NCBI GenBank assembly: GCA_963842845.1
Contig: CAWJHZ010000007.1
Coordinates: forward strand, 8,342 to 72,341
Direction: 5' to 3'
Length of the DNA stretch: 64,000 nucleotides
From: an uncultured Chloroflexia bacterium
GTDB lineage: Bacteria > Chloroflexota > Dehalococcoidia > DSTF01 > JALHUB01
Under the pieces are notes generated by a model, which saw only the letters and a list, made by a program, of their open reading frames with translations, did not search any database and was not told the origin of the DNA. Numbering within the stretch: the first letter of the stretch is position 1; every line of letters starts with the position of its first letter. Both the position numbers and the translations under genes were made by a program. Positions 12,442 to 33,515 of the stretch are shown piece after piece.

Positions 12442-15228
12442 ATGAACCCCAACGAATTCGTACGCAAATGGGCTGCCTCCACCCAGAGCGAAAGTGCGGC
12501 TGCACAAGCGCATTTCATCAACCTGTGTCAGATGCTGGGCGAGGGAACGCCCAACGAAGACCCCAGCGGCGATTACTTCGCCTTCGAGAAAGGCGCGAAA
12601 AAGCCCGACGGCGACGGGTTTGCCGACGTGTGGCTCAGGAACCACTTTGCCTGGGAGTACAAGGGCAAACACAAAGACCTCGGGATTGCTTACAAGCAGG
12701 TTCAGACGTATCGCGAGGCGCTGGGTAACCCGCCGCTGCTCGTTGTCTGCGACATAGAACGATTCGAAGTCCACACCAACTGGACCAACACAGAGACCTG
12801 GATCTACCGCTTCCGCAACGCCGACATCGCGCTGGACGAGCCGGTCGAAGTCACCACTTACGGCGGGCCCGCTGCCGACGCCCCGAAGCTCACAGCCCTC
12901 CAAGTCCTGAAGGCGCTCTTCGAGGAGCCCGAGCGCCTGAAGCCTCTCCGGACTACCGAGCAGATCACACAGGAGGCCGCCAAGCTCTTCGGCCGCATCA
13001 CCGATGACCTGCGCAAATGGAAGGTAGAGGACATGCGCATCGCTCGCTTCGTGACGCGGGTCATGTTCTGCATGTTCGCGACAGACGTGGGCCTGTTGCC
13101 GCGCGAGACCTTTAGCGAGGTCATCAACGTCAACAAGGACGACCCCGCCGCATTCCGCGAGAACCTGTCGGCGCTCTTCGGCGTCATGGCGGAAGGCGGC
13201 AAGTTCCTCATGCACCCCGTCCCTTACTTTAACGGCCGCTTGTTCGAGGACAGCGACGTGCCCGACGAGATCCACGGCGAGCACGTGCGGCTTTTGGAAG
13301 ACCTGAACGACCTCAACTGGGCGGACGTGGAACCGGTCATCTTCGGCACGCTGTTCGAGCGCGTCATCGACCCCGCCCACCGCAAGCAACTGGGCGCGCA
13401 TTACACCTCTCGAGCCGACATCGAGCTGATCGTTGAGCCGGTGCTGATGGCGCCCCTGAGGCGGGAGTGGGACCAGATCAAGGCAGCGGCGGAGGACCTG
13501 CCGGAGAACGCGGCTTCGCGGCGGCGCATCGCCGGCGCGCTGCAGACGTTCCAGAACCGGCTGGCAACTATCCGTGTTCTTGACCCCGCCTGCGGCTCCG
13601 GCAATTTCCTCTACGTCTCCCTGGCTCTTCTCAAGGCCCTCGAAAAAGAGGTTATCGCCTTCGGGTCGTTGCATGACGTTGCGCTCTCCCCGCGCGTTCA
13701 CCCGCGCCAACTGATGGGCCTGGAGATCAGCGAGTACGCGCGGGAGCTGGCATCCATAGTCATATGGATAGGCTACCTGCAGTGGAAGCATAGAAACGTC
13801 ATCCCGTTTGCCGATGAGGTGCCCATTCTGCAGCCACTGGACCAAATCGAACTTCGCGATGCGATATTGGACCTTTCTAGCCCGTCGGGTCCCAGGGAAC
13901 CGGATTGGCCTGAGGTCGATATCATTATTGGGAATCCTCCGTTCCTTGGCACCAAGAAAATGCGGGAGGCTCTTGGCGATGATCTCACCCGCGCACTGAG
14001 ATCGGTCTACGCCGGACGCGTCCCCGGCTTTGCTGATTTGTGCTGCTACTGGTTTGAGAAGGCGCGGCGGGCCATCCAGGAGGGCAAGGCGAAGAGGGCC
14101 GGGCTCTTGGCCACGCAAGCGATTAGAGGCGGCCTCAACCGTGAAATCCTGAAGTCGATCAAGCGCACGGGCGATATCTTCTTTGCAGAATCCGATAGGC
14201 CGTGGATACTCGATGGCGCTGCTGTTCATGTTTCAATGATCGGGTTCGATGATGGGAGTGAACGGTGCCGATTTCTGGATGGCCGGCCCGTCGACAACAT
14301 CAATCCTGACCTCACGAGCCAGTCTAACGTGACGGCCGCAAGGCGACTCGCCGAGAACGCGGGCATTGGGTTCATCGGCGACGTGAAGGTAGGTTCGTTC
14401 GACATTGAACAGTCGCTGGCCGTTTCCTTCTTGGCGCTGAGCGGCAACCCCAACGGCAAGCCGAACGGTGATGTGATTCGGCCTTGGGTGAATGGCGCAG
14501 ATTTCACGGGGCGTTGTCGCTCCAGGTGGATCATCGACTTTCCTCCGGGTATGTCAGCCGAAGAGGCTGCCAAGTACGAGAAGCCATTTGAGTACGTAAG
14601 GGCTCACGTCAAGCCCCTGCGGGATACAAGCAAACGTAAGCCCTACCGAGAAAAGTGGTGGATCCATGCGGAAGCATGCGTGGCGATGCGAGACGCTATC
14701 AAGGGCCTCTTGGTTAGTCCGACCCTTACAAAGCATCGTCTCTTCGTATGGTGCGAGCCCCCAGCACTGCCAGATCATCAACTGGTCGTGTTCGCGCGGG
14801 ACGACGACTATTTCTTCGGCGTTCTCCACTCCCGCGCTCATGAGGTGTGGGCACGCGCCACAGGCACCCAGTTGCGAGAAGTGGAGAGCGGTTTCCGTTA
14901 TACCCCGACAACCTGTTTCGAGACGTTCCCGTTCCCAAGACAATCGCCAGAGCAGCCGGGCGCAATCGCAGAGGCGGCGCGGGAACTCGATGGTCTGCGG
15001 CAGACCTGGCTTGACCCGCCGGAAGACAGCATCGCTCCGAGTGAACTCAAGAAGCGCACTCTAACCAACCTCTACAACCAGCGCCCCACCTGGCTGGCAA
15101 ACGCGCATCGCAAGCTGGACGAGGCGGTGTTCGCGGCATACGGCTGGCTGGAGTCGCCGGACGCGCTGTCGGACGCGGACATCGTCAAGCGGCTGTTGGA
15201 GTTGAACCTCGCGAGAGAGCCCGCCTAG
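12442..15228 (+). CDS. MmeI-family Type IIL (IIG) restriction-modification enzyme: fused PD-(D/E)xK nuclease, N6-adenine methyltransferase and target-recognition domains; intact
   Basis: The N-terminus aligns with the MmeI pattern (FVRKWAAS...PDGDGFADVWLRNHFAWEYKGK...QVQTYREALGNPPLLVVCDIERFEV) with the D...EYK nuclease motif. SAM motif VLDPACGSGNFL. Motif IV GNPPF. The long C-terminal region is the TRD. Single ORF of 928 aa from the second Met. Confidence 0.8.
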   Translation: MNPNEFVRKWAASTQSESAAAQAHFINLCQMLGEGTPNEDPSGDYFAFEKGAKKPDGDGFADVWLRNHFAWEYKGKHKDLGIAYKQVQTYREALGNPPLLVVCDIERFEVHTNWTNTETWIYRFRNADIALDEPVEVTTYGGPAADAPKLTALQVLKALFEEPERLKPLRTTEQITQEAAKLFGRITDDLRKWKVEDMRIARFVTRVMFCMFATDVGLLPRETFSEVINVNKDDPAAFRENLSALFGVMAEGGKFLMHPVPYFNGRLFEDSDVPDEIHGEHVRLLEDLNDLNWADVEPVIFGTLFERVIDPAHRKQLGAHYTSRADIELIVEPVLMAPLRREWDQIKAAAEDLPENAASRRRIAGALQTFQNRLATIRVLDPACGSGNFLYVSLALLKALEKEVIAFGSLHDVALSPRVHPRQLMGLEISEYARELASIVIWIGYLQWKHRNVIPFADEVPILQPLDQIELRDAILDLSSPSGPREPDWPEVDIIIGNPPFLGTKKMREALGDDLTRALRSVYAGRVPGFADLCCYWFEKARRAIQEGKAKRAGLLATQAIRGGLNREILKSIKRTGDIFFAESDRPWILDGAAVHVSMIGFDDGSERCRFLDGRPVDNINPDLTSQSNVTAARRLAENAGIGFIGDVKVGSFDIEQSLAVSFLALSGNPNGKPNGDVIRPWVNGADFTGRCRSRWIIDFPPGMSAEEAAKYEKPFEYVRAHVKPLRDTSKRKPYREKWWIHAEACVAMRDAIKGLLVSPTLTKHRLFVWCEPPALPDHQLVVFARDDDYFFGVLHSRAHEVWARATGTQLREVESGFRYTPTTCFETFPFPRQSPEQPGAIAEAARELDGLRQTWLDPPEDSIAPSELKKRTLTNLYNQRPTWLANAHRKLDEAVFAAYGWLESPDALSDADIVKRLLELNLAREPA

Positions 15229-16806
15229 ACTTGCGAACCCTTTCGCTGATCCGGGTTGGGGCGGCGTCCCATGCGGCGCGCCATGTCGGCGGCGAAATTG
15301 GCGGCTGTTCCCACAACGCCGCGCTGGTGCGGGATGGGGCGCATCGCGTTCGACAGCTCCGGGTGCTTCTCGGCGTAAGCCCGCACCTCCTCCAGCGTCA
15401 CGCCGTAGGTGTCGAGCACGCGCTGCAGCTCCCCACGGGCCTTGTCTTTCGCTTCCTGCAGCTTCATCTGCACCCGGCTCTTGACCAGCACCTCGCCGTC
15501 TCCTGTCGTCTCGATAGAGACAAAGACTGTGTCGCCCAGGTCGCTCACCACCTTCGCCTGGACGCCGTCGCTGATCGTGCTGGGCATGCAGCCGAAAGGC
15601 TTGATGGAGATCATCATGTGGGCCTTGGCGTGTCGCACCATGTAGATGTGCTTGGTGACCTCCAAGTGGCCCTCGCCGGCGATGAGTCGCTTCTCATAGT
15701 AACCTTCGGAGTAGCGGTCGAGCATGCCCATCGCCGGGAAGCCCTGCGGCTTCATGTTCATGATGGCGCGGTAGAAAGTGTACAGGATCTCCCCGAAGTG
15801 CTTACCTACGCGGAGTCCGAACCAGACGAGCCAGGGGTTGGCCGTGCCCATCCCCTGCGGGTCTGATTTGACGAAGAGGCGGTCCCGCACCTTGAGCTCG
15901 TTGAGCCAGATCATGTACTCGAACCAGGCCCCGACCGTGTCGACCATCACCTCGGCGCCCTCGTCTTCCAGCCAGTGCAGGAGACGGTGGTTCGACTCGT
16001 CCTCCGCGTGCTTGAGGAAGAACTCCCCGGTGACCTTCACCCGCGGCTTGACCCTCAGGTAATCGACCTGGATGCGGCCGAGCTTGACCCTGATAGCCGC
16101 CATCGTCCTTGAGATGGAGAGCCCCTCTCTTGCTGCCACCCGCACCATCTCACGGGCCGCCGCCAGCGCCTTGTCGGTTGCGCCGGGGACGACCTCGTAG
16201 GGCCGTATCTGGCAGGCGAGATCGCCCAGGAGGTCGGCGGCGATCGCCGCCTTGGCGAGACGCCAGAACACCTTGGGCGTCATCCGCACCCCCGCCGACT
16301 CCTGATTAATGTCGAGACCGTGGGCGATGTCCAGCATCGCGATCCGGAAGTTGGGGAAGCCGGCCGCCTTGAGCGCCTTGCGCATGTCCGCCTCGTACAT
16401 CCCCATCCGGCAGGGCCCGCAGTCGCTCGCCCAGAGGAGGGCAAAGCGCTCTTCGATCTCGCTGGCTAAGAGCCCTTCCCGCCGTCGCTCGAATAGGAAC
16501 TTGAGCAGGGTGCCGATCGTGTAGTAAGTGGGGTTGCACTGCCCTCGGTTACAGAACTCCTTGCCGATGGCGAGCGACTCCTGGTTAGGGGTGGGAAGTC
16601 GCTGCGCTTTGTAGCCAAGCCCCTCCAGCACTCCCAGGAGCACCTCCTGGAGAGTCGCGGGAAGCGCGCAAAAGACGATGGTCGTCTCGGCCTTGTTTAT
16701 CGGCGTGGTGGGGTCGGCGGGCCGCTTGAAATGGCGTACCTCCGGTCCCTCGACGCCCATCTCCTGGACTAGGGCGCGTCGGAAGGCCTCAACCTTCGCC
16801 TCGATC

Positions 16807-16832
<26 letters not shown>
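15225..16832 (-). CDS. 2-hydroxyacyl-CoA dehydratase-related protein (HgdB/BcrC-like partner of CoA-enzyme activase)
   Basis: About 535 aa from a GTG at 16832 (VSTIESAAEIEAKVEAF...). Cys-containing segments CNRGQCNPTYY and DCGPCRMGMY. Located immediately downstream of the activase fusion gene. Assignment by family resemblance only. Confidence 0.4.
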
Positions 16833-20289
<3,457 letters not shown>

Positions 20290-20655
20290 GATCTACCCGC
20301 GATGCCATCCCCTGAAAAGGGCGAGCCCCGCCGGCGATAAGATGCCCTGTACAGTGTAAGCCCAGACCCTGCGTTCTCCAATAATACCAGTTGATATGCC
20401 CTCAATCCCGCGACCCTCTGCGAACGCTACCACAGTCCATGCTACTGCGGCCACCGCCCCCAGCCATAACGAGTCGGAGCACCTGCTCGGGAATCAGAAG
20501 TCCGGTATTAAGCCATCTCGTCTTGACCATGAGGTCATCGTGTGCGGCCCAGCCCCCTTGGCCGTCATCGGTCAATGCCTTGATGACCCGTCGCGCTAAC
20601 GTCGGCACCAGGCGGCTCCGAAGGTGTTAGAGCCTAGATTCGAGCTGAGCGGGGA

Positions 20656-21354
20656 TTAACGCAGCCCTTTGGCGAAGCGCCGCAAGCGGGTAGACCCCGC
20701 CTTCATCAGAACCGAGCCGTGTCCGAAGCACACGATGTCGCACTCCAGAGCGGCCAGCTTGCGGATGGATTCCCTGGCCTGGGCCTTGTCCTGGGTGAAC
20801 ATGCCGGGCGGAGGGCGCAAGCCAAAGACGTTCACGACGGCGTCCCCCACGTAGAGCACACCCCTGGAAGGCATGTGCAGGGCGATCTGCCCAGGGGTAT
20901 GGCCAGGGGCATGTACGACTCGTAGGCCGGCAACCCCAAGCTCGTCACCATCCTGGAGTTCCCGGTCCACCCGTGACGGTTTCGGCGGTCGCGCCAGGCG
21001 GACTAGGAGAGGACCGAGAAGGCCACTCAAGAGCCGTGGCATCTTCGGCGACGGCATGGACTCCTCACCCCGCACAACCGGGGCATCCAGTGCGTGCACA
21101 CACACTTGAGCGCCCGTAGCCTCGGCGAGTTCGGCCAGGCTGCCGGTGTGATCCCCGTGATAGTGAGTCACGACGATTTCTTTGAGGTCCTCGGGCTTGT
21201 GACCGATAGCAGCGATGGTCTGGAGCACCTTCTTTGTGGCACCGGCCATACCCGTGTCGACGAGAGTCAGATGGTCTTCTCCCTCGACGAGGTAGACCCC
21301 GCACCCCTTTATTCCCTCTACCTTGTACACGCCCTCGACAATCTTCATGAGCAT
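20656..21354 (-). CDS. MBL-fold metallo-hydrolase
   Basis: HYHGDHTG (HxHxDH) motif plus downstream His/Asp ligands (VHAPGHTPGQ, CFGHG). 232 aa. Confidence 0.75.
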   Translation of the reverse strand: MLMKIVEGVYKVEGIKGCGVYLVEGEDHLTLVDTGMAGATKKVLQTIAAIGHKPEDLKEIVVTHYHGDHTGSLAELAEATGAQVCVHALDAPVVRGEESMPSPKMPRLLSGLLGPLLVRLARPPKPSRVDRELQDGDELGVAGLRVVHAPGHTPGQIALHMPSRGVLYVGDAVVNVFGLRPPPGMFTQDKAQARESIRKLAALECDIVCFGHGSVLMKAGSTRLRRFAKGLR

Positions 21355-21490
21355 CTCCCTCCTCGAGGTTGTCGTCGCCGCTGGCGGCTGGATTATACGA
21401 CAACGTTCTTCGCCTTCGCAGCATCGCCTTGACTTTCGCGCACACTAATGCATCATGGTCATGATTCCACGTTTGCGAAGGAGAACGACC

Positions 21491-21715
21491 ATGACAGCGA
21501 CCATCATCCCCATCGGCGAGGAGGCAGCAGGCTGGGAACGCGCTCTCTACGCATTTCTTGCCGAAAAGGAGAGGCGGAGCGGCTCAAGACGCATAGTCGA
21601 AGGCTACTCGCGCACTCTCCAGCACTTCTTCGGGGCCGTTGGCAAGCCGCCGGACAGAATCACAAGCCAGGAGGTCTTCACCTGGGCTTACGGCAGAGGA
21701 CTCTCGGGCAACTGA
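21491..21715 (+). pseudogene. N-terminal fragment (about 75 aa) of a tyrosine integrase, near-identical to the N-terminus of the intact integrase at 37926
   Basis: MTATIIPIGEEAAGWERALYAFLAEKERRSGSRR(I/T)VEGYSRTLQHFFGA... matches 37926..38150 at both protein and nucleotide level, including about 60 bp of upstream sequence. It terminates after SGN, with no catalytic domain. Confidence 0.7.
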
Positions 21716-21759
21716 GTCAAGTATATTGTTGCCCAAGGAAGCGCAGGACTACAGCGGCC

Positions 21760-22060
21760 TATTTGAACGGGGCGCTGCCAGAGGAGGAGTGGCGGCGCGA
21801 GGTGCAAACAGTCGATGATCGCCTCGCTCGTCTTCCGCCTGGGTCTCCCGATGCCATCCGCTTTGCCGGCAAGCGGCTCGAGAGCATAGGCCAGCTATGG
21901 GACGGAATGACGATGGCGGAACGACGCGAAGCGTGCCGGATCTTGTTCGAGAGGGTGGGGATAGACACGAGAAGAAAGCGGTTGTGGGTCCATCCCTGGC
22001 CGGAGTTCCAGCCGCTGTTTGAGATGCGACGGAAGATGTGCAAGCGGTCTATCTGTGTAG
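21760..22060 (+). pseudogene. C-terminal fragment of a large serine recombinase (remnant)
   Basis: ...RLPPGSPDAIRFAGKRLESIGQLWDGMTMAERREACRILFERVGIDTRRKRLWVHPWPEF resembles the C-terminal tails of large serine recombinases. It lacks the resolvase and recombinase domains and abuts the tRNA 3' end. Confidence 0.45.
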
Positions 22061-22063
22061 GTA

Positions 22064-22139
<76 letters not shown>

Positions 22140-22210
22140 ACGCAGCCATCTTACCGCCTGTTTTGCCGACCTGACAAGGCCCCGCGTCCAGCGACGCCGG
22201 GCGCAGTCGC

Positions 22211-22453
22211 CTAATGGCACTGCCGGTCAAAGGTGCGGCGCGGCGGGTTCGCCAGTTCCCTGCTTATCGCCTGCTCGTAGACCTGCGCGATCACAGCGTG
22301 GCCGGCGTCGTTGGGGTGGATGTTGTCGCCGAAGCCGCTGCCGAGGAACGTCTTGTCCTGAGGCGTCGAAATCAGGCCAAGCTGCAGCTTCGTCGCGGTC
22401 CAGAGGTCGGCAACCGCGACGTCTCGCTTGGCCGCCGGCCCCATCCGCGACAT
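22211..22453 (-). pseudogene. possible C-terminal fragment of an SGNH/GDSL hydrolase
   Basis: 80-aa ORF containing GDNIHPNDAGHAVIAQ, which resembles the DxxH catalytic block at the C-terminus of SGNH hydrolases. No N-terminal GDS block present. Confidence 0.25.
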
Positions 22454-22513
22454 CCCGCATTCTAGCGCGGCGCGTGATAGCAGCGTAGAATCGGCGGTAA
22501 AGGAGGTCCTGGG

Positions 22514-23134
22514 ATGGACTCACTCGCCGGAATCGTGCGCCTCGAATCAGGACAGGTCGAAGACGCCGGAAAGATGCTCGGCCGCGCCTTCTTCGACAAC
22601 CCGATGGCGCTCTTCCTCCTGCCCGACGCCGATACCCGCAGCCGCCCGCTGACCTGGATGTTCGACCGAACTGCCCGCTACGGCCTGCTCTTCGGCGAGG
22701 TCTACACCACTGTCGATGCCGTCGACGGTGCCGCGATCTGGCTCGTGCCGGACGGTCCTCCCATGACCCGCGAGAACATCGCGGCCGCCGGAATGATGGA
22801 GATGCCCCAGCAGATGGGCGCGGAGCCGTTTCAGCGGTTGATGCTCATGAAGGGCCACTTCGATGAGCTGCGTCAGCGCGACGCTCCAGAGCGACACTGG
22901 TACCTGTGGACGCTCGGCGTGGACCCGCCGCGACAAGGCCAGGGCGTCGGCGGCGCGCTCATGCAGCCGGTATTTGCGCTGGCCGACCGCGAGGGCCTGC
23001 CGTGCTACCTGGAGGCGGACAAAGCGAAGAACGTCCCCTTCTACCAGCGACACGGCTTCGAGGTGGTGGAGGAGAGCGATCTGCCCGGCGGCGGCATGCA
23101 CTACTGGACAATGAAGCGCCCACCACAACGCTAA
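22514..23134 (+). CDS. GNAT family N-acetyltransferase
   Basis: 206 aa with the acetyl-CoA binding motif RQGQGVGGALM and a typical GNAT fold arrangement. Confidence 0.7.
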   Translation: MDSLAGIVRLESGQVEDAGKMLGRAFFDNPMALFLLPDADTRSRPLTWMFDRTARYGLLFGEVYTTVDAVDGAAIWLVPDGPPMTRENIAAAGMMEMPQQMGAEPFQRLMLMKGHFDELRQRDAPERHWYLWTLGVDPPRQGQGVGGALMQPVFALADREGLPCYLEADKAKNVPFYQRHGFEVVEESDLPGGGMHYWTMKRPPQR

Positions 23135-23173
23135 AGTGCGCAAGTGGCCTGCCCCCGAAAACGAGTCCACCCT

Positions 23174-24025
23174 CTATGTTACTCGTACAGGTAGCATCTG
23201 GTGTGACAGAGCTATACTTCCCGTCCACGGCAGCACCGTCTCCGGCGCCGGTGGCCGGTAACCCAGTGAGCTGTGGGGACGCACCGCATTGTAGTGCCGT
23301 CGCCAGCGCTCCACAAGCACCTGCGCCTCAAGAAGCGTGTCGAAGATCTCCGGGTTCAACAGCTCGTCCCTGAGCTTGCCATTGAACGACTCGACGTAGC
23401 CGTTCTCCCAGGGACTCCCGGGCTCTATGTACAGGGTCTTTACTCCTACCCTGGTCAGCCACTCCCGTACTACCTTCGCCGTGAACTCCGTGCCGTTGTC
23501 GGAGCGCAGGTGGCAGGGAGCGCCCTTCTCCACAAAGAGCTGAGCGAGCACCCCCAGAACGTCATCGCTGGTGATCCTCCTCGCCACGTATATGGCTAGG
23601 CACTCCCTGCTGAACTCGTCGATAATGACCAAGAGCCTGAAGGTGCGCCCGTCCCTCGTCCGCGCCGCCACGAAGTCGTAGCTCCAGACGTGTCCCTTGA
23701 AGGCGGGTCGCAGCCTCACGCAGGAGCCGTCGGTGAGCCAGAGACGCCCCCTCTTGGGCTGTCTCCTTGGCACCTTCAGACCCTCAAGCCGCCACAGCCT
23801 CTCCACCCGCTTGTGGTTGACTCGCCAGCCCTCACTGTTCAACATCGCCGTCACCCTACGATATCCGTATCTCCCGTACTCCGCCGCCAGCTCTACCATC
23901 CGCCGCACCAGAAGGGGCTCGTCAGATGGCGGCGCTCGTCCTCTCCTCTGGGTCGAACGTATCTGATTCAACACCAAGCAGGCCCGGCGCTCCGATACCG
24001 CCTCCCGGCCGAGCGCGTCCCTCAC
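23174..24025 (-). CDS. IS3-family transposase OrfB (DDE / rve integrase core)
   Basis: 283 aa. rve-type core ...[43 protein letters not shown]...[10 protein letters not shown]...[25 protein letters not shown] (the D, D, E catalytic context). Confidence 0.8.
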
Positions 24026-24057
24026 GTGCTCGACCGCAAGACCCCTCTTGGCCGGGC

Positions 24058-24336
24058 TCAGAAGTTTCCCTGGGCCGCCTCACGCAGAATGGCGTTGTCC
24101 AAGGAGAGGTCCGCCACCAGCTTCTTCAGCCGGGAGTTCTCCCGCTCTAGGTCCTTAAGCCTCCTCGCCTGATCCCTGCCCAAGCCCCCGTACTCCTTGC
24201 GCCAGCGGTAGTAGGTCTGCTCCGCCACCCCCAGCCTCCGGCATACGTCGGACACGGCAACGCCCTGCGCTAGAGCGACCTCAGCCTGTCTCAGCTTGCC
24301 GATGATTTCCTCGGCCGTGTGCTTCTTGCTGCCCAA
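24058..24336 (-). CDS. IS3-family transposase OrfA (HTH)
   Basis: 92 aa. [48 protein letters not shown] helix-turn-helix. Directly upstream of orfB in a different frame. Confidence 0.75.
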
Positions 24337-24677
24337 TTCAGATGCCCCCTTTCTTCGGCCCAGTATCCGATATTCCCTCGCTGAAGAGTAACATTGGATC
24401 TGGACTCGTTTTCGGGGGGCAGGTCAAAGACAGCGCCAGCAGTCCTCGCGGCTGTGGACGGTGAGGTCAAAGTACACCCACCCGCCGCAGTGGGGACAGC
24501 GCCGGCAGCCGATACTAGCCACACTCGGCAATGTCATTGTCCGAGTTTAGGAGGTGCCCACTCTTCGTGCAAGGCTGCGGCATGCCTCACAGCCCTCCAG
24601 GTTGACAGCCGTGCTATGATCCGCGTGATTCACTTTCTGCATTCCCAACCTGTTCACCTCTGCCAAGGAAGTGTGCG

Positions 24678-25247
24678 ATGAGACGACTAATAGGCCTGAC
24701 GCTCGTGCTCGCGGCCTTCTTTGGCCTTACCTGCAGCAATGGGAACAAGAACGGCGGCCCGTCCTTCGCGCAATTGGTTATGTCTTTCAGGACTGCGACG
24801 TTCCACGGAAAGTATGACGTTCGGGTCAACAACACTCTGGCAGGCAGTATTGAATGGTTCCAACTGCCGCCTCGCACTCGACTGGACGTGTCGATTCTGG
24901 GGAGTACCGAGACGACCCTCCTCACGCCTGACGGCAACTTCAAATGTGATGCGGGCCAATGTCAGAACACTTCGGGCAGCGAGGAGACTCTCGCTAAGGG
25001 GTTCGACGAGCTTCTCACAGGGACGCGAGTAGTCAGCGACAGTCGGAGAATCATCGCCGAAAGGGATGGATTCTGCTTCGACGTGGAGGCCACACAGGAA
25101 ATCAACTTCAAGACGGGCGAAGTCTGTTTCGACGCCAACGGTTTCCCCCTCTTGCTTACAGGAAACGACGGAACTGGCGAAACCAGCATGGAAGCAATGG
25201 AGCTCAGCGACCGCGTCTCTTCAGATGCTTTCGCACTGCCCAACTGA
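24678..25247 (+). CDS. lipoprotein, cassette A of the secreted-protein array (no C-terminal sorting tail)
   Basis: MRRLIGLTLVLAAFFGLTCSNG signal peptide with lipobox. Preceded by the shared promoter-leader cassette and followed by the shared 3' element at 25284. Confidence 0.55.
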   Translation: MRRLIGLTLVLAAFFGLTCSNGNKNGGPSFAQLVMSFRTATFHGKYDVRVNNTLAGSIEWFQLPPRTRLDVSILGSTETTLLTPDGNFKCDAGQCQNTSGSEETLAKGFDELLTGTRVVSDSRRIIAERDGFCFDVEATQEINFKTGEVCFDANGFPLLLTGNDGTGETSMEAMELSDRVSSDAFALPN

Positions 25248-25417
25248 CCGCCCGTTCATGATCCAGCTAGACCGCCACGGCAATGTGTGAAACTGTCCAT
25301 GTGAGAACCGCCTCCGCTCAGGGGGAATTGGCCTAACCGACGGTTGACATCAGTGCTATAATCCTCTTGGTTCACTTCTGATTATCCCCGCCGACCCGCC
25401 AACAGGGAGGTTGTGCG

Positions 25418-26173
25418 ATGCGTGTTGCCGTTCCCCACAAAGGCCAGAGGGCACCTCTTCTGTTGTTCCTGCTAATACTTGGGCTTATGGCCACGTTGGC
25501 CGCAGCCATCCTCTGTTCATGGGTTTCGTCGCCCGGGGCGGTCGCTTCGGGCCCCCTCCACGGCATCAGCTTCCTCAAGGGCTGCGCCGGTCCTACGAAC
25601 GTGGGTGACCCGTACAGCTGCACGTTCCGCGTTTCAAACACTGTCGACCAGGCCAGTGACACCCTGACGATCACATCAGTTGTTGATGTCGTACATGCTG
25701 GCTCAGGCGACGTCTCTTCGGGCAATTTGCTGCCGGGCGCAACGTTCACTTTCACCGGAGGAGCATTCTGCAACGTCGGCCAAACGCTCTGCACGCTCCC
25801 GTTCGGCGCGTCTATCACCTTCACGACAAGCCATTACACCGTTCAGCCCACTGATCCGAACCCATTGACCGACAATGCTTCATTGACGTGGCAGGACACC
25901 TGTTCGAGCGGCTCTGGAAACTGCCCCGCGGGAGACCAAAGTGGCTCCAGTGGGTCTTGGTCGGCGGTGCAGACGCTCACGCCGACGCCGACGCCGACGC
26001 CGACAAGCACGCCTACACCGGTCCCTTACGGCTGGGTCGGCGGCATAGCGGAACCGCCCGATGTCGCCGAATCAGCGGGCGGATCATCTTCGCTACCATT
26101 CGCTGGCATCGCTGCAGGCGTCATTGCACTAGGAGCGGGCGGCTGGTATGCCAGGAGGCGCTGGCTCCACTAG
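25418..26173 (+). CDS. secreted protein, cassette B: N-terminal Cys-containing domain, PT linker, C-terminal sorting-signal-like tail
   Basis: Signal peptide. The domain is shared with the paralog at 33880..35247. The TPTPTPTPTSTPTP linker is followed by VGGIAEPPDVAESAGGSSSLPFAGIAAGVIALGAGGWYARRRWLH (motif, hydrophobic helix, basic cluster). Confidence 0.65.
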   Translation: MRVAVPHKGQRAPLLLFLLILGLMATLAAAILCSWVSSPGAVASGPLHGISFLKGCAGPTNVGDPYSCTFRVSNTVDQASDTLTITSVVDVVHAGSGDVSSGNLLPGATFTFTGGAFCNVGQTLCTLPFGASITFTTSHYTVQPTDPNPLTDNASLTWQDTCSSGSGNCPAGDQSGSSGSWSAVQTLTPTPTPTPTSTPTPVPYGWVGGIAEPPDVAESAGGSSSLPFAGIAAGVIALGAGGWYARRRWLH

Positions 26174-26200
26174 CAATCCGCAGCGAAGACCGGCATCGCC

Positions 26201-26226
26201 GTGTGTGAAACTGTCCACGTGAGAAC
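26201..26226 (+). repeat. conserved 3' cassette element GTGTGTGAAACTGTCCACGTGAGAAC (one of five copies; others at about 25284, 27521, 29130 and an orphan at 39856)
   Basis: Exact or near-exact 24-26 nt repeat found 25-35 bp after the stop codon of each cassette gene. It is co-conserved with the last codons (CGCTGGCTCCACTAG) and a CAACCCGCAGC spacer. Confidence 0.7.
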
Positions 26227-26414
26227 AGGGTCATGGCAGGGAGAAGAGGGATGACTAACCGCTGATTGACATCCTCGCCCAACTCAGAGTACCTTGCGGG
26301 AGCCTGGGCAGGAGCAGTCCTCTGTCATGATGGCACAAGCGACTTGCGCTAGGCATCAGGTTACGATCTGCCGAAGTCGTCCCCGCCCTTGCTTCTCAAG
26401 AAAGGGATTTCAAC

Positions 26415-27494
26415 ATGCCACTCAAATCGCCCCCCACAAGTGTACGTCTTCGATTACTGGCAGGTCTCATGGCAGTCGCCGTGCTATCGTTGGTCGCAGG
26501 TGTCACGCCCTCCTGGCCACAGCCCGTACACGCCGCATTTCCCGGGATCAACGGCAAGATCGCTTTTCAGAGCGACCGCAACGGCGCCTATCAGATCTAT
26601 AAAATGAATGCTGACGGTAGCGGTCAGACTCGTTTGACGAACAATGCGGCCAACGATACAACGCCCGCATGGTCTGCTGATGGTTCCCAAATCGTCTTCG
26701 GCAGCACGCGTGACGGCAACCCCGAGATCTACAAGATGAACGCTGACGGTACGGGGCAGGTACGCCTCACTAACAACACAGCCAACGATCTTTGGCCATC
26801 GTGGTCCCCCGACGGCTCCAAGATCGTCTTCACCAGCGACAGGGACGGCCAGTTCCACACCTACGTCATGAACGCCGATGGCAGCAGTCAGGCTCTTCTC
26901 GGCCCGGGTAACACCGACGACGAGTGGCCGGCCTGGTCGCCAGACGGGTCGAAGATAGCGTTTGTCAATGGGAACGGGGTCATTTACGAGCTCTATACGA
27001 TGAACGCCAACGGCACGGGTCGTACCCAACTGACCTTTGACGGCGCCATCAACACATCGCCTGACTGGTCTCCAAACGGATTGAAGATAGCGTTTGGCAC
27101 CGATCGTGGGGGGAACCGCGACATCTACCTGATCAGTGCCAGTGGCGGTGCCGAGACACGCCTTACCAACAACGGCGCTGTCAACGGCAACCCGGCCTGG
27201 TCTCCCGACGGCCAGCGCGTCGTCTTTTCCTCCAACAACCAGGTCTATGTCATGAACGCGGATGGTAGCAGCCAGACGCGTCTGACCAACGACTCAGCAG
27301 ATGATCTGTCGCCTGACTGGCAGCCGATCAAGCTGGCGGCCGTCGGTGGTATCGCAGAGCCTCCTGACATCACCCAATCAACGAGGGGATCATCGTCACT
27401 GTCGTTCGGTGCTCTTGCTGGCATCGCTGCAGCAGGAGTCGTGGTAGTCACTGTAGGTGGGTGGTGGTACGCACGGAGGCGTTGGCTCCGATAG
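26415..27494 (+). CDS. secreted TolB-like (PD40/WD40-like) beta-propeller protein, cassette C, with the same C-terminal sorting tail
   Basis: Repeats of the form ...DG..IVF.S.RDGN.EIYKMNADGSGQ.RLTNN.A.D..P.WSPDG... (at least six blades). Tail VGGIAEPPDITQSTRGSSSLSFGALAGIAAAGVVVVTVGGWWYARRRWLR. Confidence 0.65.
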   Translation: MPLKSPPTSVRLRLLAGLMAVAVLSLVAGVTPSWPQPVHAAFPGINGKIAFQSDRNGAYQIYKMNADGSGQTRLTNNAANDTTPAWSADGSQIVFGSTRDGNPEIYKMNADGTGQVRLTNNTANDLWPSWSPDGSKIVFTSDRDGQFHTYVMNADGSSQALLGPGNTDDEWPAWSPDGSKIAFVNGNGVIYELYTMNANGTGRTQLTFDGAINTSPDWSPNGLKIAFGTDRGGNRDIYLISASGGAETRLTNNGAVNGNPAWSPDGQRVVFSSNNQVYVMNADGSSQTRLTNDSADDLSPDWQPIKLAAVGGIAEPPDITQSTRGSSSLSFGALAGIAAAGVVVVTVGGWWYARRRWLR

Positions 27495-27668
27495 CAACCC
27501 ACGGCTAGACCGCTACAGCAGTGTGTGAAACTGTCCACGTGAGAACGCCTACAGGACAGGGTGAATTAGGCGCATTGACAAGGGTTCAAACGGTGCTATA
27601 ATCTCCGCATTGGTGGCTCGTTACTGATTATCCCCCGTCATGGATTCCCGCCCGATAAGGAGAGTTGA

Positions 27669-29108
27669 ATGCGCACTGTGACTCCTTCAGTGGGGTTGCG
27701 GGTTTTTCTGGCTACGATGACCTTGGGCGTACTTCTGATCCTGTTGACGACGGCGTCGGAGAGCCGCGCCACCGGACCCTGGACAGTACTCCAGCCTGCA
27801 CCCGTCGCTCGTATGGGATTGCATACCGTAGCCTACGACAATAACGGACATCTCTTTGTTACCACAGGGCTGCTCGACTGGACCACCCCCACGGACGGCT
27901 TCTATCGTTACGATATCGCCACAGATTCCTGGACTCAGTTAGCATCTACACCCCAGCGGATGTTTGACAGCAAATCGGCCTACGATGGCGCAGGGCACAT
28001 ATACCTCATTCAAGGAGGGAATTACTCTTTTACTGCCGTACACAACTTCTATCGGTATGATATTGCCTCGAACACTTGGTCCCAACTCCCGCCGGTTCCA
28101 CTGGACTACGTGGCTGAGGCAGCGTCCTGCTCTGATGGGCGGCACATGTTCGTTACCGGCGGGAATCTGTACGATGTCCAGCACTTCTACTCCTTTGATA
28201 TGACGACGCTCGTTTGGACTGAATTGGCTTCGCCTCCGGGGATCATGTCTGGAGACTCCTTGAGATACGCCTGGCAGAACGCGTGCGCAACCGATGGGCA
28301 GGGCGTGTATCTGTTCGGCGGGGATACCGTTAACGGCGATGGGGACCATCCCATTGTCTACACGAATCGGCTGGTTCGATATGACATAGCAACTAACCAA
28401 TGGTTCCGCCTGGCTGACGGCCCAGAGATTATGATAGACAACGTGGCGGTCTATGATGGTCATCATCGCATACTCGTTTCAAGAGGCTTCCAGCCCCTTG
28501 AGAGCGGCGATTGGGTACCAACAGCCCAGTTGTACTCGTACGACATCAGCTCTGACGAGTGGACACAAATGCCGGATGCGCCCGGCCCTATGAGCGGGAA
28601 CAGTGGTGCCTACGATACCAACGCTGACGCTTTCTTTATCACTGCCGGCCTTGGCGATTCCGACGCAGCTTCCCTCTACGAGTTCGAGGAGAATCTCGTT
28701 CCACCGACCAATACGCCGACTCCCTGCCCTGGATCAGGGTGCCCAACTTCAACGGCTACGAGCTCACCCACGTCGATGCCTAGTCCATTACCTACGTCGA
28801 CGCCCAGTCCTTCGCCCACGTCGACGCCTAGCCCATCACCCACGTCTACGCCTAATCCATCACCTACGTCCACCCGCAGCCCATCCGCCACGCCAACACC
28901 TCCGCCTTCGGCAACCGCCAAACCCTCACAAGGCGTCGGAGGCACGGTGATGCTCCCGCCAGCCGCTGTGGTTGCTGCCTCCGATACCACGGCTGAGGAC
29001 TCCGGCTGGTCAGGTGGCGCGTATGCGGCGCTGGCTGTCGGCCTAAGTGCGGCGTTTGCGGCGCTTGGCGTCGGCGGCTGGTACGCAAAGAAGCGCTGGC
29101 TCCACTAG
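27669..29108 (+). CDS. secreted Kelch-repeat beta-propeller protein, cassette D, with P/S/T-rich linker and the same sorting tail
   Basis: Kelch-like blades (YRYDIATDSWTQLASTP, YRYDIASNTWSQLPP, YSFDMTTLVWTELASPP, VRYDIATNQWFRLADGP, YSYDISSDEWTQMPDAP). Linker SPTSTPSPSPTST... Tail ...GGAYAALAVGLSAAFAALGVGGWYAKKRWLH. Confidence 0.65.
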   Translation: MRTVTPSVGLRVFLATMTLGVLLILLTTASESRATGPWTVLQPAPVARMGLHTVAYDNNGHLFVTTGLLDWTTPTDGFYRYDIATDSWTQLASTPQRMFDSKSAYDGAGHIYLIQGGNYSFTAVHNFYRYDIASNTWSQLPPVPLDYVAEAASCSDGRHMFVTGGNLYDVQHFYSFDMTTLVWTELASPPGIMSGDSLRYAWQNACATDGQGVYLFGGDTVNGDGDHPIVYTNRLVRYDIATNQWFRLADGPEIMIDNVAVYDGHHRILVSRGFQPLESGDWVPTAQLYSYDISSDEWTQMPDAPGPMSGNSGAYDTNADAFFITAGLGDSDAASLYEFEENLVPPTNTPTPCPGSGCPTSTATSSPTSMPSPLPTSTPSPSPTSTPSPSPTSTPNPSPTSTRSPSATPTPPPSATAKPSQGVGGTVMLPPAAVVAASDTTAEDSGWSGGAYAALAVGLSAAFAALGVGGWYAKKRWLH

Positions 29109-29465
29109 CAACCCGCAGCCAACACGGGAGTGTGTGAAACTGTCCACGTGGGCACCCACACCAAGGGAAGATGTTGTCACCGCCAGACGGTCTGCGGAAC
29201 AGGTGATCTGCCCCACAAGCCGCGCCTGTCCGCCGGCCACGCCCTGCGTGTTCAAGGACTTCTGGCAGGGCTGGCGGGCCCGAGATGTGAAAATGGATCT
29301 ATTCGCCACTTGACAAGCGCCTACAAGATGTTATACTCCGCTTTGCTGGTGGAAATTCCCTGAATCCCCGCCGAACTCGAAGTCCTCGCCAACAGAGAAT
29401 TTGTGTGGCGGCGAGTTCTTATTGCTTGAATGCCGCTTGCGCGGTTCCTATTCGGAGGTGGCGAA

Positions 29466-30530
29466 ATGACAAAGAGACTTCTCGTCGCGGCTATCATCTT
29501 CGGGTCTTTCATGGTATCGGCGGCCGGAACCACGGCCAGCCCAGCTTATGGTTTTGTCCAAGTCAGCGGAGGTCTGGACTACACATGTGCTATGGAGGCG
29601 AATGGCAGCCTCATTTGTTGGGGGGGAATCTACGGGGCGTCTTATCCCTTTGCGGATATGTTCAGCCAAATCAACGCCGGTGATGACCATGGTTGTGGAG
29701 TCAGAGTTGACGGTACCTTGGAGTGTTGGGGTGATAATTCCGTCGGGCAATCAACACCTCCCTCCGGCACCTTCACTCAAGTTAGCGCTGGCTTCCGGTT
29801 CACTTGCGGGGTAAGGACGAATGGTGTCATAGCCTGCTGGGGAGCCAATGATGAAGGTCAGTTGAACACTCCATCTGGCACGTTCGGCCAGGTAAGCGCT
29901 GGCGGCTACCATGCCTGTGGCTTGCGAACGGACGGGACTCTGACCTGCTGGGGTTGGGACAACTTTGGGCAAGCGTCACCTCCGAGCGGCACTTTCGGGC
30001 AAATTGATGCAGGATATGAGCAAACATGCGGAGTGAAGACTGACGGCACTATGGTTTGTTGGGGCAATAATCAATACGGACAGTCCACTCCGCCGGCGGG
30101 GACATTCACGCATGTCGCCTCAGGTTATATTCACACTTGCGGAATAAAGACCAACGGCACTATCGCTTGTTGGGGATACAATGGCTTTGGACAATCAACG
30201 CCTCCGTCTGGCGTCTTTGCTCAAATCGGGGCCGGGTACGACCATACCTGCGCCATAAACTTGAGCGGAGCAATTGCCTGCTGGGGAGACAATGAATCGG
30301 GGCAGGCAACGCCACCAGTACTGCCACCTCCCCCATCTCCGACACCCGGCAGCGTCGGCGGCAAGATACTGCTTCCTGTGGCGTTGGACCCTCAGCAAGA
30401 TTTCGATGGGGCAAGAGGAGCTTCTGGAGGGTCGGGTATCCCGCTGGCTGCGTGGCCTGTGCTGGCCAGTGCCCTGGGAGGCGTTTTGGCGGCGGCTGGC
30501 TGGCGTGCACGGAGGCGCTGGCTGAGGTAG
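29466..30530 (+). CDS. secreted RCC1-repeat (BLIP-II-like) beta-propeller protein, cassette E, with the same sorting tail
   Basis: RBS GGAGGTGG then ATG (MTKRLLVAAIIFGSFMVSAAG). Seven repeats of the form ..CG...DGT..CWG.N..GQ..PPSGTF.Q..AG. Tail VGGKILLPVALDPQQDFDGARGASGGSGIPLAAWPVLASALGGVLAAAGWRARRRWLR. Confidence 0.65.
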   Translation: MTKRLLVAAIIFGSFMVSAAGTTASPAYGFVQVSGGLDYTCAMEANGSLICWGGIYGASYPFADMFSQINAGDDHGCGVRVDGTLECWGDNSVGQSTPPSGTFTQVSAGFRFTCGVRTNGVIACWGANDEGQLNTPSGTFGQVSAGGYHACGLRTDGTLTCWGWDNFGQASPPSGTFGQIDAGYEQTCGVKTDGTMVCWGNNQYGQSTPPAGTFTHVASGYIHTCGIKTNGTIACWGYNGFGQSTPPSGVFAQIGAGYDHTCAINLSGAIACWGDNESGQATPPVLPPPPSPTPGSVGGKILLPVALDPQQDFDGARGASGGSGIPLAAWPVLASALGGVLAAAGWRARRRWLR

Positions 30531-30691
30531 CCCGATTCCAGCGCCTCGCGAAGACCGCTGTTGGGTCGCTCAAAAAAGCCATCGCGACCCCATATGACAC
30601 TAAGTGTGGATGTTGATGGCTAGGTTCGCCATTCCAGCCCAAGGCCGGGCCGCCCGACGAATGCCCCCTCGAGCGCCAGACCCGGCCTCAG

Positions 30692-33515
30692 CTACTGCGC
30701 CGGTTCCCGCTCAAGGTTGAGGCGCAGCAAGCGGGTGACGATCTCAGAATCCGACAGCGCGTCAGACGGCTCCTGCCACCCGTAAGCGGCGAACACCGCC
30801 TCGTCCAGCTTGCGATGCGCGTTTACCAGCCACATGGGGCGCTGGTTGTAGAGCTTCGTAAGCGTGCGGCGTTCTGACTTCTTCACGCCCGGCTTTTCCT
30901 CCGGCGCCTTCAGCCAGTTCTGGCGGGGCTCTTCCAACTCCCGCGCCGCCTCTGCGATTGCGCGCTGCTGCTCTGGCGATGGTCTTGGGAACGAGAACGT
31001 CTCGAAACAGGTTGTCGGGGTATAACGGAAACCGCTCTCCACTTCTCGCAACTGGGTGCCGGTGGCGCGCGCCCACACCTCATGAGCGCGGGAGTGCACC
31101 ACGCCGAAGAAGTAGTCATCATCGCGAGCGAAGACTATGGTGGCCTGGTTGCAGAGGACCTCGGGAGCCACCCAGACGAAAAGACGGTGCTTCGAGTGGC
31201 AGGGCGTGGCTATGAATCTCCACATGCCCTGCAACGCCCTTCTCATGTTTACCCTCGGCTCCCCGTAGATCCACCACCGGTCGGCGTATGCCTTACGTCT
31301 GTTTCTCTCGCGGATTGGCTTCACAACAGAGCGCAGGTGCTCGAAAGGCATTTCGTACTGGGCCGCTTGTTCCTCTCTTGTCCCAGGAGGGAAGTCGATT
31401 GTCCACAAGCCCCGTGGGCGCTGGACCAGATCGACGGCGCTCATCAAAGGTCTTACGATGTCGCTGTTTGGGCGCCCGTTAGGATTCCTAGACCTCAACA
31501 TGCGCCTGGCAAGTTCCGCCGAGATGTCAAACCCCGCCTTCGGTGACGGCCCTTGGAAGCAAATCCTCAGGTTCTCTCTAAGAGGTCGAGCCATCGTCAG
31601 AATCGACACCCGCCGTCAAGTTGGCGTTGATAACTGCAACTTGGTGCCCGTCGAGCGTCCGCTCTAGCTCTGAACCCTTGTCGAAGCCGAGCATCGAGAC
31701 GTGGACCGCCGCCCCGTCCAGAATCCAAGGCCTGTCCGAATAGGCCAAGAACATCTCGCCCGTCTCTTTTATCCGCTCAAGAACGCGCCTATTTGCGCCG
31801 CCCCGAATGCCCTGTGTTGCCAAGAGTCCTGCTCTGGTTGATCGTTCGTCGGCAATCATCTCACGTGCTTGTTCAAACCAATAACAGCAGAGGTCGCTGA
31901 AATGGGGAAGCCGGTCACCATACAGCGAGAACAACGCTTCGACGTATTCGCCGCCAAGATGTTTGCGCAACAAGCTTCCCCCCAAGAACGGAGGATTTCC
32001 GACGATTACGTCCGCTTCCGGCCACTCAGGGATACGCGGCTGGCTGGGGTCCGAGAGGTCAACGATTGCGTCCCTCATCTCTATCTGGTCGAGCGGTTGA
32101 AGGATGGGAGTCTCGTCCGTGAACGGGATCACGTTGCGGTGCTTCCATTGCAGGTAGCCTATCCAGATGACTATAGACGCCAGCTCGCGGGCGTACTCGT
32201 TGATCTCGATGCCCATCAGCTGGCGCGGGTGAACGCGCGGGGAGAGTGGAACGTCGTATGACGCCGCGAAGGCGATAACCTCCTTCTCCAGAGCCTTGAG
32301 GAGAGCCAGGGAGACGTAGAGGAAGTTGCCGGAGCCGCAAGCGGGGTCAAGGACACGGATGGTCGCCAGCCGCTCATGAAACGTCTTTAGAGCGCCGGCG
32401 ATGCGGCTGTGCAGCGTCTCCGGCTTGAACCGCCGGGAGGCCGCGTTCTCCGATAGGTCCTCCGCCGCCACCTTGATCTGGTTCCATTCCCGTCTGAGAG
32501 GGGCCATCAGCACCGGCTCCACTATTAGCTCGATGTCGACACGAGACGTATAGTGCGCGCCGACCTGTCGCCGCTTCTCACGGTCAATAACGCGCTCAAA
32601 AAGAGTGCCGAAGATTGACGGCTCGACATCGGCCCAGTTGAGGCTGTCCAGGTCCTCCAGCAGGCGGACATGCTCGCCGTGGATCTCGTCGGGAACGTCG
32701 CTGTCCTCGAACAAGCGGCCGTCGAAGTAAGGGACGGAGTGCATGAGGAACTTGCCGCCCTTCCGCATGACCTCGAAGAGCTCCGACAGGTTCTCGCGGA
32801 ATGCGGCGGGGTCGTCCTTGTTGACGTTGATGACCTCGCTAAAGGTCTCGCGCGGCAACAGGCCCACGTCTGTCGCGAACATGCAGAACATGACCCGCGT
32901 CACGAAGCGAGCGATGCGCATGTCCTCTACCTTCCATTTGCGCAGGTCATCGGTGATGCGGCCGAAGAGCTTGGCGGCCTCCTGTGTGATCTGCTCGGTA
33001 GTCCGGAGAGGCTTCAGGCGCTCGGGCTCCTCGAAGAGCGCCTTCAGGACTTGGAGGGCTGTGAGCTTCGGGGCGTCGGCAGCGGGCCCGCCGTAAGTGG
33101 TGACTTCGACCGGCTCGTCCAGCGCGATGTCGGCGTTGCGGAAGCGGTAGATCCAGGTCTCTGTGTTGGTCCAGTTGGTGTGGACTTCGAATCGTTCTAT
33201 GTCGCAGACAACGAGCAGCGGCGGGTTACCCAGCGCCTCGCGATACGTCTGAACCTGCTTGTAAGCAATCCCGAGGTCTTTGTGTTTGCCCTTGTACTCC
33301 CAGGCGAAATGGTTCTTGAGCCATACGTCCGCGAACCCGTCGCCGTCAGGTTTCTTCGCGCCTTTCTCAAACGCGAAGAAAGCGCCGCTGGGGTCGGCCT
33401 CGTTCGGGGTCTGCTCGTTGAGCAACCGGCACAGGTCAATGAAGTGCTCCTGCGCAGCCGCATTTTCGCTCTGGGTGGAGGCGGCCCACTTCTTGACGAA
33501 TCCAAGGGAGTCCAT
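30692..33515 (-). pseudogene. second MmeI-family Type IIL RM gene (paralog of 12442..15228), interrupted by a +1/-1 frameshift near 31580-31610 in the TRD; possibly inactive or a sequencing artefact
   Basis: Two overlapping ORFs (31578..33569 and 30692..31609) together reproduce the full architecture: nuclease block, VLDPACGSGNFL, GNPPF, TRD, conserved C-terminus. ATG at 33515 is preceded by TATAAT 7 bp upstream. The frame switches at ACGGCGGGTGTCG (GGG run). Both frames align with copy 1 on either side of the switch. Confidence 0.7.

Follow-up and report, generated by a model that had tools for sequence, protein, structure and literature searches.

Type IIL/IIG restriction–modification (RM) enzymes of the MmeI family work without a separate methyltransferase or specificity gene, cleave about 20 nt away from their site and protect DNA by N6-methyladenine (m6A) on a single strand. 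Here we analyse a pair of such genes in a 64,000-nt stretch of DNA (the window; positions 8,342 to 72,341 of contig CAWJHZ010000007.1, assembly GCA_963842845.1) from an uncultured Chloroflexota bacterium of the Dehalococcoidia. The two genes lie convergent, tail to tail, with copy 1 at 12442..15228 on the + strand and copy 2 at 30692..33515 on the − strand, and they share a perfect 523-nt inverted repeat. An earlier note on this DNA, written from the sequence alone, had likened the arrangement to the specificity shufflons of Type I systems. We consider it probable that the locus consists of two diverged MmeI-family genes that have undergone a recent conversion of 523 nt and an older exchange near their 3′ ends, that copy 2 was inactivated later, and that no programmed switch is involved. 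We would class it as a further case of interlocus gene conversion among RM genes and not as a switch of a new type.

Several described systems invite comparison. The MmeI family itself (Morgan et al. 2009, PMC2731913; 5HR4, PMC4833311) shows the same order of nuclease, spacer, gamma-class methyltransferase, target-recognition domain (TRD) and C-terminal helices; the present copies are about 25–30% identical to MmeI and differ from it in the loop that reads recognition position 6, which here has a three-residue insertion and a glycine at the position of R808. Type II RM, PglX and DrmMI-like genes are also major targets of gene-altering programmed inversions, and a route in which two nested inversions exchange the middle part of a gene has been described (Milman, Yelin and Kishony 2023, PMC9881135). 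Like the locus studied here, those loci carry inverted repeats inside paralogous genes for single-polypeptide methyltransferase/TRD proteins, and a swap of the middle part requires two nested exchanges. However, they combine a full gene with short promoterless partial copies at a spacing of at most 2.6 kb, usually with an adjacent recombinase and with variants seen at read level, whereas the present locus has two full, promoter-bearing genes 15.5 kb apart and no adjacent recombinase, and is known from assembled sequence alone.

In Helicobacter pylori, TRDs move between non-orthologous methyltransferase genes via conserved flanks (Furuta and Kobayashi, PMC3575425, PMC3983042). This TRD movement, or Domain Movement, resembles our case in that recombination takes place at conserved flanks of the TRD, between different loci and on an evolutionary timescale, and frameshifted copies are common there. 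The genes concerned there are Type III mod, Type I S and one Type IIG S gene, and the host is a pathogen with natural competence; unlike in those cases, the footprint of exchange here lies in the arms and not in the TRD. Type I hsdS shufflons (e.g. SpnD39III; surveys in PMC7394358 and PMC7672463) likewise have inverted repeats within specificity genes and are able to change methylation specificity, but in those systems the S subunit is a separate protein, the loci are compact, the hsdS′ cassettes lack promoters and a dedicated tyrosine recombinase is often present, none of which applies here. The arrangement had been put forward, tentatively, as not a standard feature of MmeI-family loci; with inversions in Type II RM, PglX and DrmMI genes (PMC9881135) and TRD movement between paralogues (PMC3575425) already published, this claim of novelty is weakened.

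Anatomy and relatives of the two genes

Copy 1 is intact, encodes 928 aa and corresponds exactly to a database entry (P0001). We place its start at 12442 and not at 12316, as in the list of open reading frames (ORFs), because homologues begin with MNPNEF or MDSLGF and P0001 has 928 aa; the sequence upstream of this start is the scar of an IS3 element. Copy 2 carries one extra base that divides it into an N part of 645 aa (P0117) and a C part of 305 aa, listed as ORFs at 31578-33569 and 30692-31609 of the − strand. Both genes stand out in the ORF list and in a repeat search, in which a series of inverted-repeat arms connects them.

That the pair are inverted paralogues of the MmeI family, as the earlier note proposed, is borne out by their domains. 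In both copies the Pfam models MmeI_N (39 bits, cut-off 27), MmeI_hel (50 bits), MmeI_Mtase (103 and 95 bits) and MmeI_TRD (34 bits in copy 1 and copy 2 alike, cut-off 27) score above curated cut-offs; MmeI_C reaches only 17–21 bits in the two copies, under its cut-off. The PADLOC model REase_MTase_IIG matches at full length (E 1.6e-251), and the sole relative in the PDB is MmeI (5HR4, E 8e-55), with a HMMER alignment that spans from the nuclease motif to residue 903. The nuclease motif is of the PD-(D/E)xK type, D62...E72-Y-K74 aligning with D..E-M-K of MmeI (D70...E80-x-K82), and its E-x-K portion sits in the 523-nt tract and is identical in both copies. A helical spacer and a gamma-class N6-adenine methyltransferase are joined to it in one polypeptide, with motif I (DPACGSGNF), VLDPACGSGNFL and motif IV (GNPPFLG, containing NPPF) in copy 1 and copy 2, followed by an MmeI-type TRD and then a C-terminal helical domain, as judged from the MmeI_TRD score and the 5HR4 alignment. 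Scanning of the neighbouring genes turned up neither a separate methyltransferase nor an S gene. We rejected an identity as BREX PglX or DISARM DrmMI because NCBIfam PglX models score 14–24 bits against cut-offs of 400–900, DrmMI models match the C-terminal half only (E 1.8e-76), and the neighbouring genes that were scanned include no BREX or DISARM partners (PglZ, BrxC, DrmA/B/C).

The nearest proteins in the database belong to metagenome-assembled genomes (MAGs) of Dehalococcoidia and Chloroflexota. Copy 1 shares 76–77% identity with P0002 and with P0004, and for its TRD core the identity to any of the 120 matches listed is at most 61%; copy 2, once repaired, shares 84% identity with P0003 from end to end. 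The copies therefore fall in different sub-lineages and are not recent duplicates. P0001 and P0117 are single-member, single-contig entries. An exact-protein look-up of copy 1 found no alternative isomers from the same species, and metagenome contigs scanned for exact 40-nt matches yielded relatives at 83–85% identity only and no second assembly of the species.

The flanks of the genes tell a mixed story. A MarR-family regulator lies upstream of copy 1 (11722..12159, +), and in a related locus from another assembly, L001, a MarR gene (57% aa identity) stands directly upstream of the MmeI gene, so that copy 1 holds the syntenic position. Despite this synteny, the immediate flanks of L001 match those of copy 2: the 5′ flank (33516..33612, −) matches L001 (9904-10000) at 87.5% over 96 nt, and the 3′ flank (30596..30691, −), with a GC-rich hairpin, matches L001 (12827-12927) at 93% over about 100 nt. 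The similarity of copy 1 to the family is limited to the span from −13 to 19 nt before the stop codon. L001 is like copy 2 in both flanks and in the first 60 nt, and like copy 1 in most of the body; a past reciprocal swap of gene bodies was considered and rejected as unprovable, the whole clade being mosaic. In the flanks that copy 2 shares with the distant relative L001, conservation (87–93%) exceeds that in much of the coding sequence, and the genes around them are different. The pattern suggests that a gene unit of ~3.0 kb, with its promoter and terminator-like hairpin, moves or is replaced as a block.

Identity profile and gene conversion

The left arm of the perfect inverted repeat (12649..13171, +) encodes residues 70-243, comprising the nuclease core and part of the helical spacer, and the right arm (32783..33305, −) is its exact reverse complement over 523 nt, as first noticed, with mismatches at 12648 and 13172. 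The surroundings of this tract were read per 50 nt, in copy 1 coordinates, from a global alignment of the two copies. The 5′ ends of the genes are 76–86% identical, 13172-13870 ranges over 54–94% (mostly 75–94%), and the figure of about 80% given previously for the sequence just outside the tract agrees with a measured 76–92%. Identity is about 50–55% at 13870-14800, 80–98% at 14810-15000 (against 30920-31113) and about 85% at 15060-15200, and beyond either gene end the copies share no similarity in this alignment.

The second, 3′ block of near-identity is also real. Repeat search and alignment place it at 14788..15026 (+) in copy 1 and 30897..31135 (−) in copy 2, with 87% identity over 239 nt and a longest exact run of 66 nt (14863-14928); it holds the specificity loop LREVESGFRY, and the peptide HSRAHEVW...CFETF, quoted in the earlier note, is encoded at 14827-14928. 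Exact runs of at least 20 nt between the copies are confined to the tract, to 13195-13709 and to 14827-15134. A pair of antisense 117-aa ORFs that had been reported as identical does exist, but the two agree at 114 of 117 residues, with the differences outside the tract. We rejected these ORFs as genes: they show no independent codon-position signal and arise as a side effect of high GC.

Identity of this kind could reflect plain purifying selection, with the tract the same in both copies merely because the encoded part of the protein is invariant. As protein the tract is indeed 99–100% identical in other genomes (P0002 identical, P0004 one residue different), and as DNA it is still 89–94% identical between genomes. 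Because the tract is near-invariant as protein in the clade, conservation must be tested at synonymous sites, for which we compared five other assemblies (L001/P0004, L083/P0003, L084/P0002, L081 and L082). Across residues 70-243, 0 of ~122 synonymous sites differ between copy 1 and copy 2, against 32–50 synonymous differences from the five assemblies (proportion of synonymous differences, pS, 0.26–0.42; proportion of nonsynonymous differences, pN, at most 0.023). In the flanks, pS between the copies is 0.59 for residues 1-69 and 0.50 for residues 244-476. At the nucleotide level, the five assemblies match the tract at 88.9–93.9%, against 100% between the copies; even for a divergence of 6.1% nt, the smallest to any of them, 523 nt without a single difference would have a probability of about 5e-15, and chance is excluded. 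Synonymous sites in the tract vary freely between genomes and not at all between the copies, which refutes purifying selection and leaves it with virtually no probability.

Since protein constraint leaves the synonymous identity unexplained, the 523-nt identity indicates recent intragenomic gene conversion, to judge from these comparisons the only economical explanation. The earlier note had reached the same reading and had named a comparison with related genomes as its check; run here, that comparison found homologues that are only 89–94% identical in the tract. A sharply bounded tract, synonymous identity and divergent homologues elsewhere, the marks of ectopic (interlocus) gene conversion, are all present. 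In the 3′ block (residues 787-853), pS is 0.24 between the copies and 0.56–0.76 against the other assemblies, P0003, with the same loop type, included. The block shows what is probably a weaker, older or partial footprint of exchange. Conversion is not universal among co-resident copies, as L064 and L067, paralogues in another MAG, are 82% identical over 1.8 kb without an identical tract.

The frameshift reported for copy 2 is there, and it falls at the junction of methyltransferase and TRD. At 31598..31602 (−), copy 2 reads GGT GTC GAT T CTG (GAT-T-CTG), with one extra base at about 31601, where the homologues compared (P0003, P0010 and P0068) read ..GVD-LT..; in copy 1 coordinates the position is about 14318. 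Deleting one T near 31601 yields a 940-aa ORF with no further defect. The extra base is outside any homopolymer longer than 2 and any simple repeat, and so does not form a classical phase-variation tract. From this context we infer that the frameshift is genuine rather than a sequencing error, and that copy 2 is thereby inactivated.

An assembly or polishing artefact, in which paralogues were evened out in the consensus, the middle segment was oriented arbitrarily and the frameshift is a read error, is in our estimation very unlikely. The source is a metagenome-assembled contig (617 kb), but paralogues ~8% apart are not normally cross-polished into a sharply bounded 523-nt block, and the second block diverges in a graded fashion, unlike artefactual identity. 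Although the orientation of a segment between 523-nt inverted repeats is indistinguishable without spanning reads, the contig passes through both repeats, implying such reads; and although long-read errors are most often single-base indels, the extra base does not fall within a homopolymer of more than 2.

The history that we favour would run as follows. Two independently diverged MmeI-family genes would have come to reside, convergent, in one Dehalococcoidia-type genome, copy 1 at the MarR-linked position and copy 2 from the other sub-lineage, with the promoter and 3′ flank usual in the family. The N-terminal nuclease/spacer region, ~92% identical at the nucleotide level between genomes, would lend itself well to RecA-type recombination; a non-reciprocal exchange of recent date would have rendered 523 nt identical, and an older exchange would have partly homogenised the 3′ block that encodes one specificity loop. 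Exchanges would have been confined to segments already similar enough (runs of at least 20 nt). The C-terminal half of the methyltransferase and the TRD core would remain divergent as too dissimilar to recombine, and two different specificities were probably favoured, which would also keep the TRD core divergent. Copy 2 would since have been inactivated by the one-base insertion. An occasional 19.6-kb inversion via the repeat would still be possible, as a by-product rather than a programmed switch. We infer both the dependence on RecA and the order of these events.

Specificity modules and the question of a switch

The region between the two blocks, described in the earlier note as unrelated, proved to be homologous though divergent (45–57% aa identity), and it includes half of the methyltransferase domain. 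Identity between the copies is 83–84% at residues 244-476, 57% at residues 477-626 (C-terminal methyltransferase half, with NPPF) and 45% at residues 627-786 (the TRD core). In MmeI, E751, N773 and A774 read recognition positions 3 and 4, and E806/R808 and R810 read positions 6 and 4 (PMC2731914). Both copies share the loop LREVESGFRY, aligned with E806/R808/R810, which equals the LESRYRY loop of MmeI with the three-residue insertion and the glycine at the R808 position. The residues aligned with N773/A774 are HQ in copy 1, taken from its 5HR4 alignment, and QA in copy 2, placed by eye on that alignment; as these residues differ, the two TRDs probably specify different sequences, and copy 1 and copy 2 are likely to have different recognition sequences.

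Among 71 clade members, the N-terminal half is 74–93% identical and the TRD core 43–75%, and which of two loop forms, LRExESGFRY or LE[SD]RPRY, a member carries is independent of similarity in the N-terminal half. This comparison shows a family that evolves by keeping its scaffold conserved while its specificity modules are exchangeable.

Other members of the clade furnish two separate observations. A Tepidiformaceae chromosome (L015) has a tandem pair, at 10001-12844 and 15121-17958, with about 2.5 kb of 100% identity, whose members are distinguished essentially by the position-6 loop alone (LREKESGFRY vs LESRPRY); the first copy also carries a premature stop. The C-terminal helical domain of MmeI (residues about 860-928) recurs as orphan fragments downstream of a full gene, in direct orientation, at L031 15038-15232, L055 14000-14167 and 15463-15638, L068 4670-4819 and L078 13687-13809, and these may be remnants of displaced 3′ ends.

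The geometry of exchange set out in the earlier note is correct: a single crossover in the tract inverts 13172-32782 (19.6 kb), and with two crossovers the middle parts change places, the second one, in the 3′ block, restoring the intergenic orientation while exchanging the middles. On this geometry one could build a working specificity switch, with the tract and the 3′ block kept as homology arms and RecA crossovers shuffling the TRD middles or inverting the 19.6 kb; the population would vary in restriction and methylation specificity, and copy 2 would be a silent donor. We judge such a switch unlikely, although a perfect 523-nt inverted repeat is an efficient recombination substrate, HQ and QA at the MmeI 773/774 positions point to TRDs that probably specify different sequences, PglX of L. 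rhamnosus offers a documented case of two nested inversions that exchange a middle part, and inversion has been validated in Type II RM and DrmMI-like genes (PMC9881135).

The attributes published for programmed inversions are a first guide. The repeat, at 523 nt exact, exceeds the 44 bp expected as a minimum inside both coding sequences (CDSs). The distance between the CDSs, in contrast, is 15,463 nt against a published maximum of 2588 bp, with housekeeping genes and a tRNA in the segment, and the asymmetry, for which the published threshold is at least 0.87, is about 0, as each copy has ~207–210 nt of CDS and a promoter upstream of the tract. A published threshold of 0.58 or more applies to orientation matching (PMC9881135); in the tail-to-tail layout here the arms of the 3′ block lie near each other and those of the 5′ tract 19.6 kb apart, a layout that suits only the former repeat. 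No site-specific recombinase adjoins either copy, the nearest being an Xer-like gene 4.4 kb beyond copy 2.

Expression points the same way. A promoter-like site precedes copy 2 at 33523..33551 (−), TTGGCG-17-TATAAT with 7 nt to the ATG, and this arrangement is kept upstream of all relatives examined. Copy 1 retains the TATAAT but has another −35 region and a 19-nt spacer (TTGACG, 12404..12434, +; 7 nt to the ATG), a site read directly from the sequence; the promoter scan did not report it, owing to the spacer. Each copy thus forms an independent expression unit, probably a leaderless one. With complete 5′ ends and promoters in both, there is no single expression site with promoterless cassettes, and because both genes possess them, a crossover in the tract trades only promoters and the first 69 codons. 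The analogy with hsdS shufflons is therefore not supported, given the complete 5′ ends and the TATAAT promoter of each gene, the 15.5 kb between them and the lack of an adjacent recombinase, and the reading of the locus as a shufflon or built-in switch is unsupported.

The frameshift further limits what exchange could achieve. The copies share no exact match of at least 20 nt between 13710 and 14826. With no usable homology between ~14318 and the 3′ block, a homologous TRD swap carries the frameshift along, and every isomer consequently keeps one intact enzyme, with the copy 1 TRD. Only one intact specificity is thus expressible in any isomer at present, and the idea of copy 2 as a silent specificity donor finds no support: homologous exchange of its TRD must bring the frameshift with it and yields no new intact specificity.

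A survey of 79 related loci with 10-kb flanks, in which a single copy means single within those 10 kb on either side, found an inverted second copy in none; the only second full copy was that of L015, in tandem. Moreover, the recent conversion homogenised the nuclease domain and not the boundary of the TRD.

Certain points nevertheless weigh against our reading of two diverged genes without a programmed switch. Homogenised blocks on either side of a divergent region are the layout expected of arms for TRD exchange, and the C-terminal half is homologous to DrmMI (E 1.8e-76), a family with validated programmed inversions (PMC9881135). The donor of the tract is not identifiable, the tract being equidistant from both sub-lineages (92.5%, 92.5% and 93.9%), and the direction and number of conversion events are not resolvable from sequence. 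The population may also contain orientation heterogeneity or chimeric genes. The most far-reaching reading is a recombinase-independent switch driven by RecA: the arms would be maintained, isomers with the 19.6 kb inverted or with exchanged or repaired TRD middles would arise, copy 2 would act as a reservoir, and specificity or expression would vary from cell to cell. We hold this version to be decidedly unlikely; if switching were true, it would extend (semi-)programmed specificity variation to MmeI-type enzymes, over an unusually long range.

As gene conversion between two diverged genes, the locus opens no new mechanism. It offers a clean and statistically strong case of interlocus conversion between RM paralogues in an uncultured Chloroflexota lineage, and it illustrates how the MmeI scaffold evolves: nuclease, spacer and methyltransferase are homogenised and stay almost unchanged, whereas modular variation affects TRD segments and a small specificity loop. 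This is useful background for predicting and engineering MmeI-type specificities and for interpreting the methylomes of MAGs.

Genomic surroundings

The interval between the copies (15229-30691; 15,463 nt) holds ~10 genes, a tRNA and an IS3 element. Large CoA-enzyme-activase-type gene(s) lie at 15225-20289, and a metallo-beta-lactamase-fold gene and a GNAT gene are also found in the interval. A crossover in the tract would invert the tRNA-Arg(CCG) gene (22064..22139, −) along with the rest of its segment, and this tRNA was all that an Rfam scan of the window returned. The complete IS3-family element is at 23148..24425 (−), and a 99-nt IS3-family end fragment between MarR and copy 1 (12209..12307, +) is 85% identical to the IS end at 23145-23243.

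Five tandem + strand genes occupy 24678-30530, the last three of them encoding beta-propeller proteins (PD40, Kelch and RCC1), and two more repeat or propeller genes lie beyond copy 2. The three gene endings that the repeat search picked up share the conserved C-terminal tail ..GGWYARRRWLH* (26126-26193, 27447-27514 and 29061-29128), and about 25–35 nt past their stop codons is a conserved element with the core GTGTGAAACTGTCCACGTG. Sites of this repeat are at 25269-25347, 26187-26265, 27507-27585 and 29096-29155, with a further copy at 39820-39879 and no Rfam match; the element may be a regulatory or recombination site.

A second inverted repeat, of 451 nt at 92% identity, pairs 25543-25993 with 34648-35098. 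Its arms lie in the genes 25418-26173 (+) and 33880-35247 (−), one inside and one outside the interval between the MmeI-family genes, so recombination at this repeat would flip an 8.6-kb segment with copy 2 and bring it into direct orientation relative to copy 1. The gene at 33880-35247 (−) also contains a long, strongly GC-skewed coding repeat (33973-34720) with 6-, 12- and 18-nt periodicity, which probably encodes a low-complexity region of a surface protein.

Two recombinase genes lie beyond copy 2: the intact Xer-like tyrosine recombinase (37926-38858) is the nearest, and a large serine recombinase is at 42156-43751. The promoter-like 5′ region of the tyrosine recombinase occurs in three direct copies (21423-21711, 35461-35497 and 37857-38146), of which 21423-21711 is a truncated recombinase copy (about the first 75 codons, 85–91% identical) adjoining tRNA-Arg and 35461-35497 is a 37-nt copy of the promoter only. 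An island test for an att duplicate of the 3′ end of tRNA-Arg found none with up to 3 mismatches. A recurrent linkage of recombinases to these genes was considered and rejected, those near copy 2 and near the P0002 gene being only 30% identical.

Upstream of the locus, a conserved intergenic element of 45–80 nt containing ..TGTCAAGCAGTTTCGGAGTTAGGCGT.. recurs at 600-644, 7888-7967 and 11538-11617, in both orientations. Its copies lie around genes for a glycyl-radical enzyme, an activase and a binding protein, and may be a shared operator or promoter.

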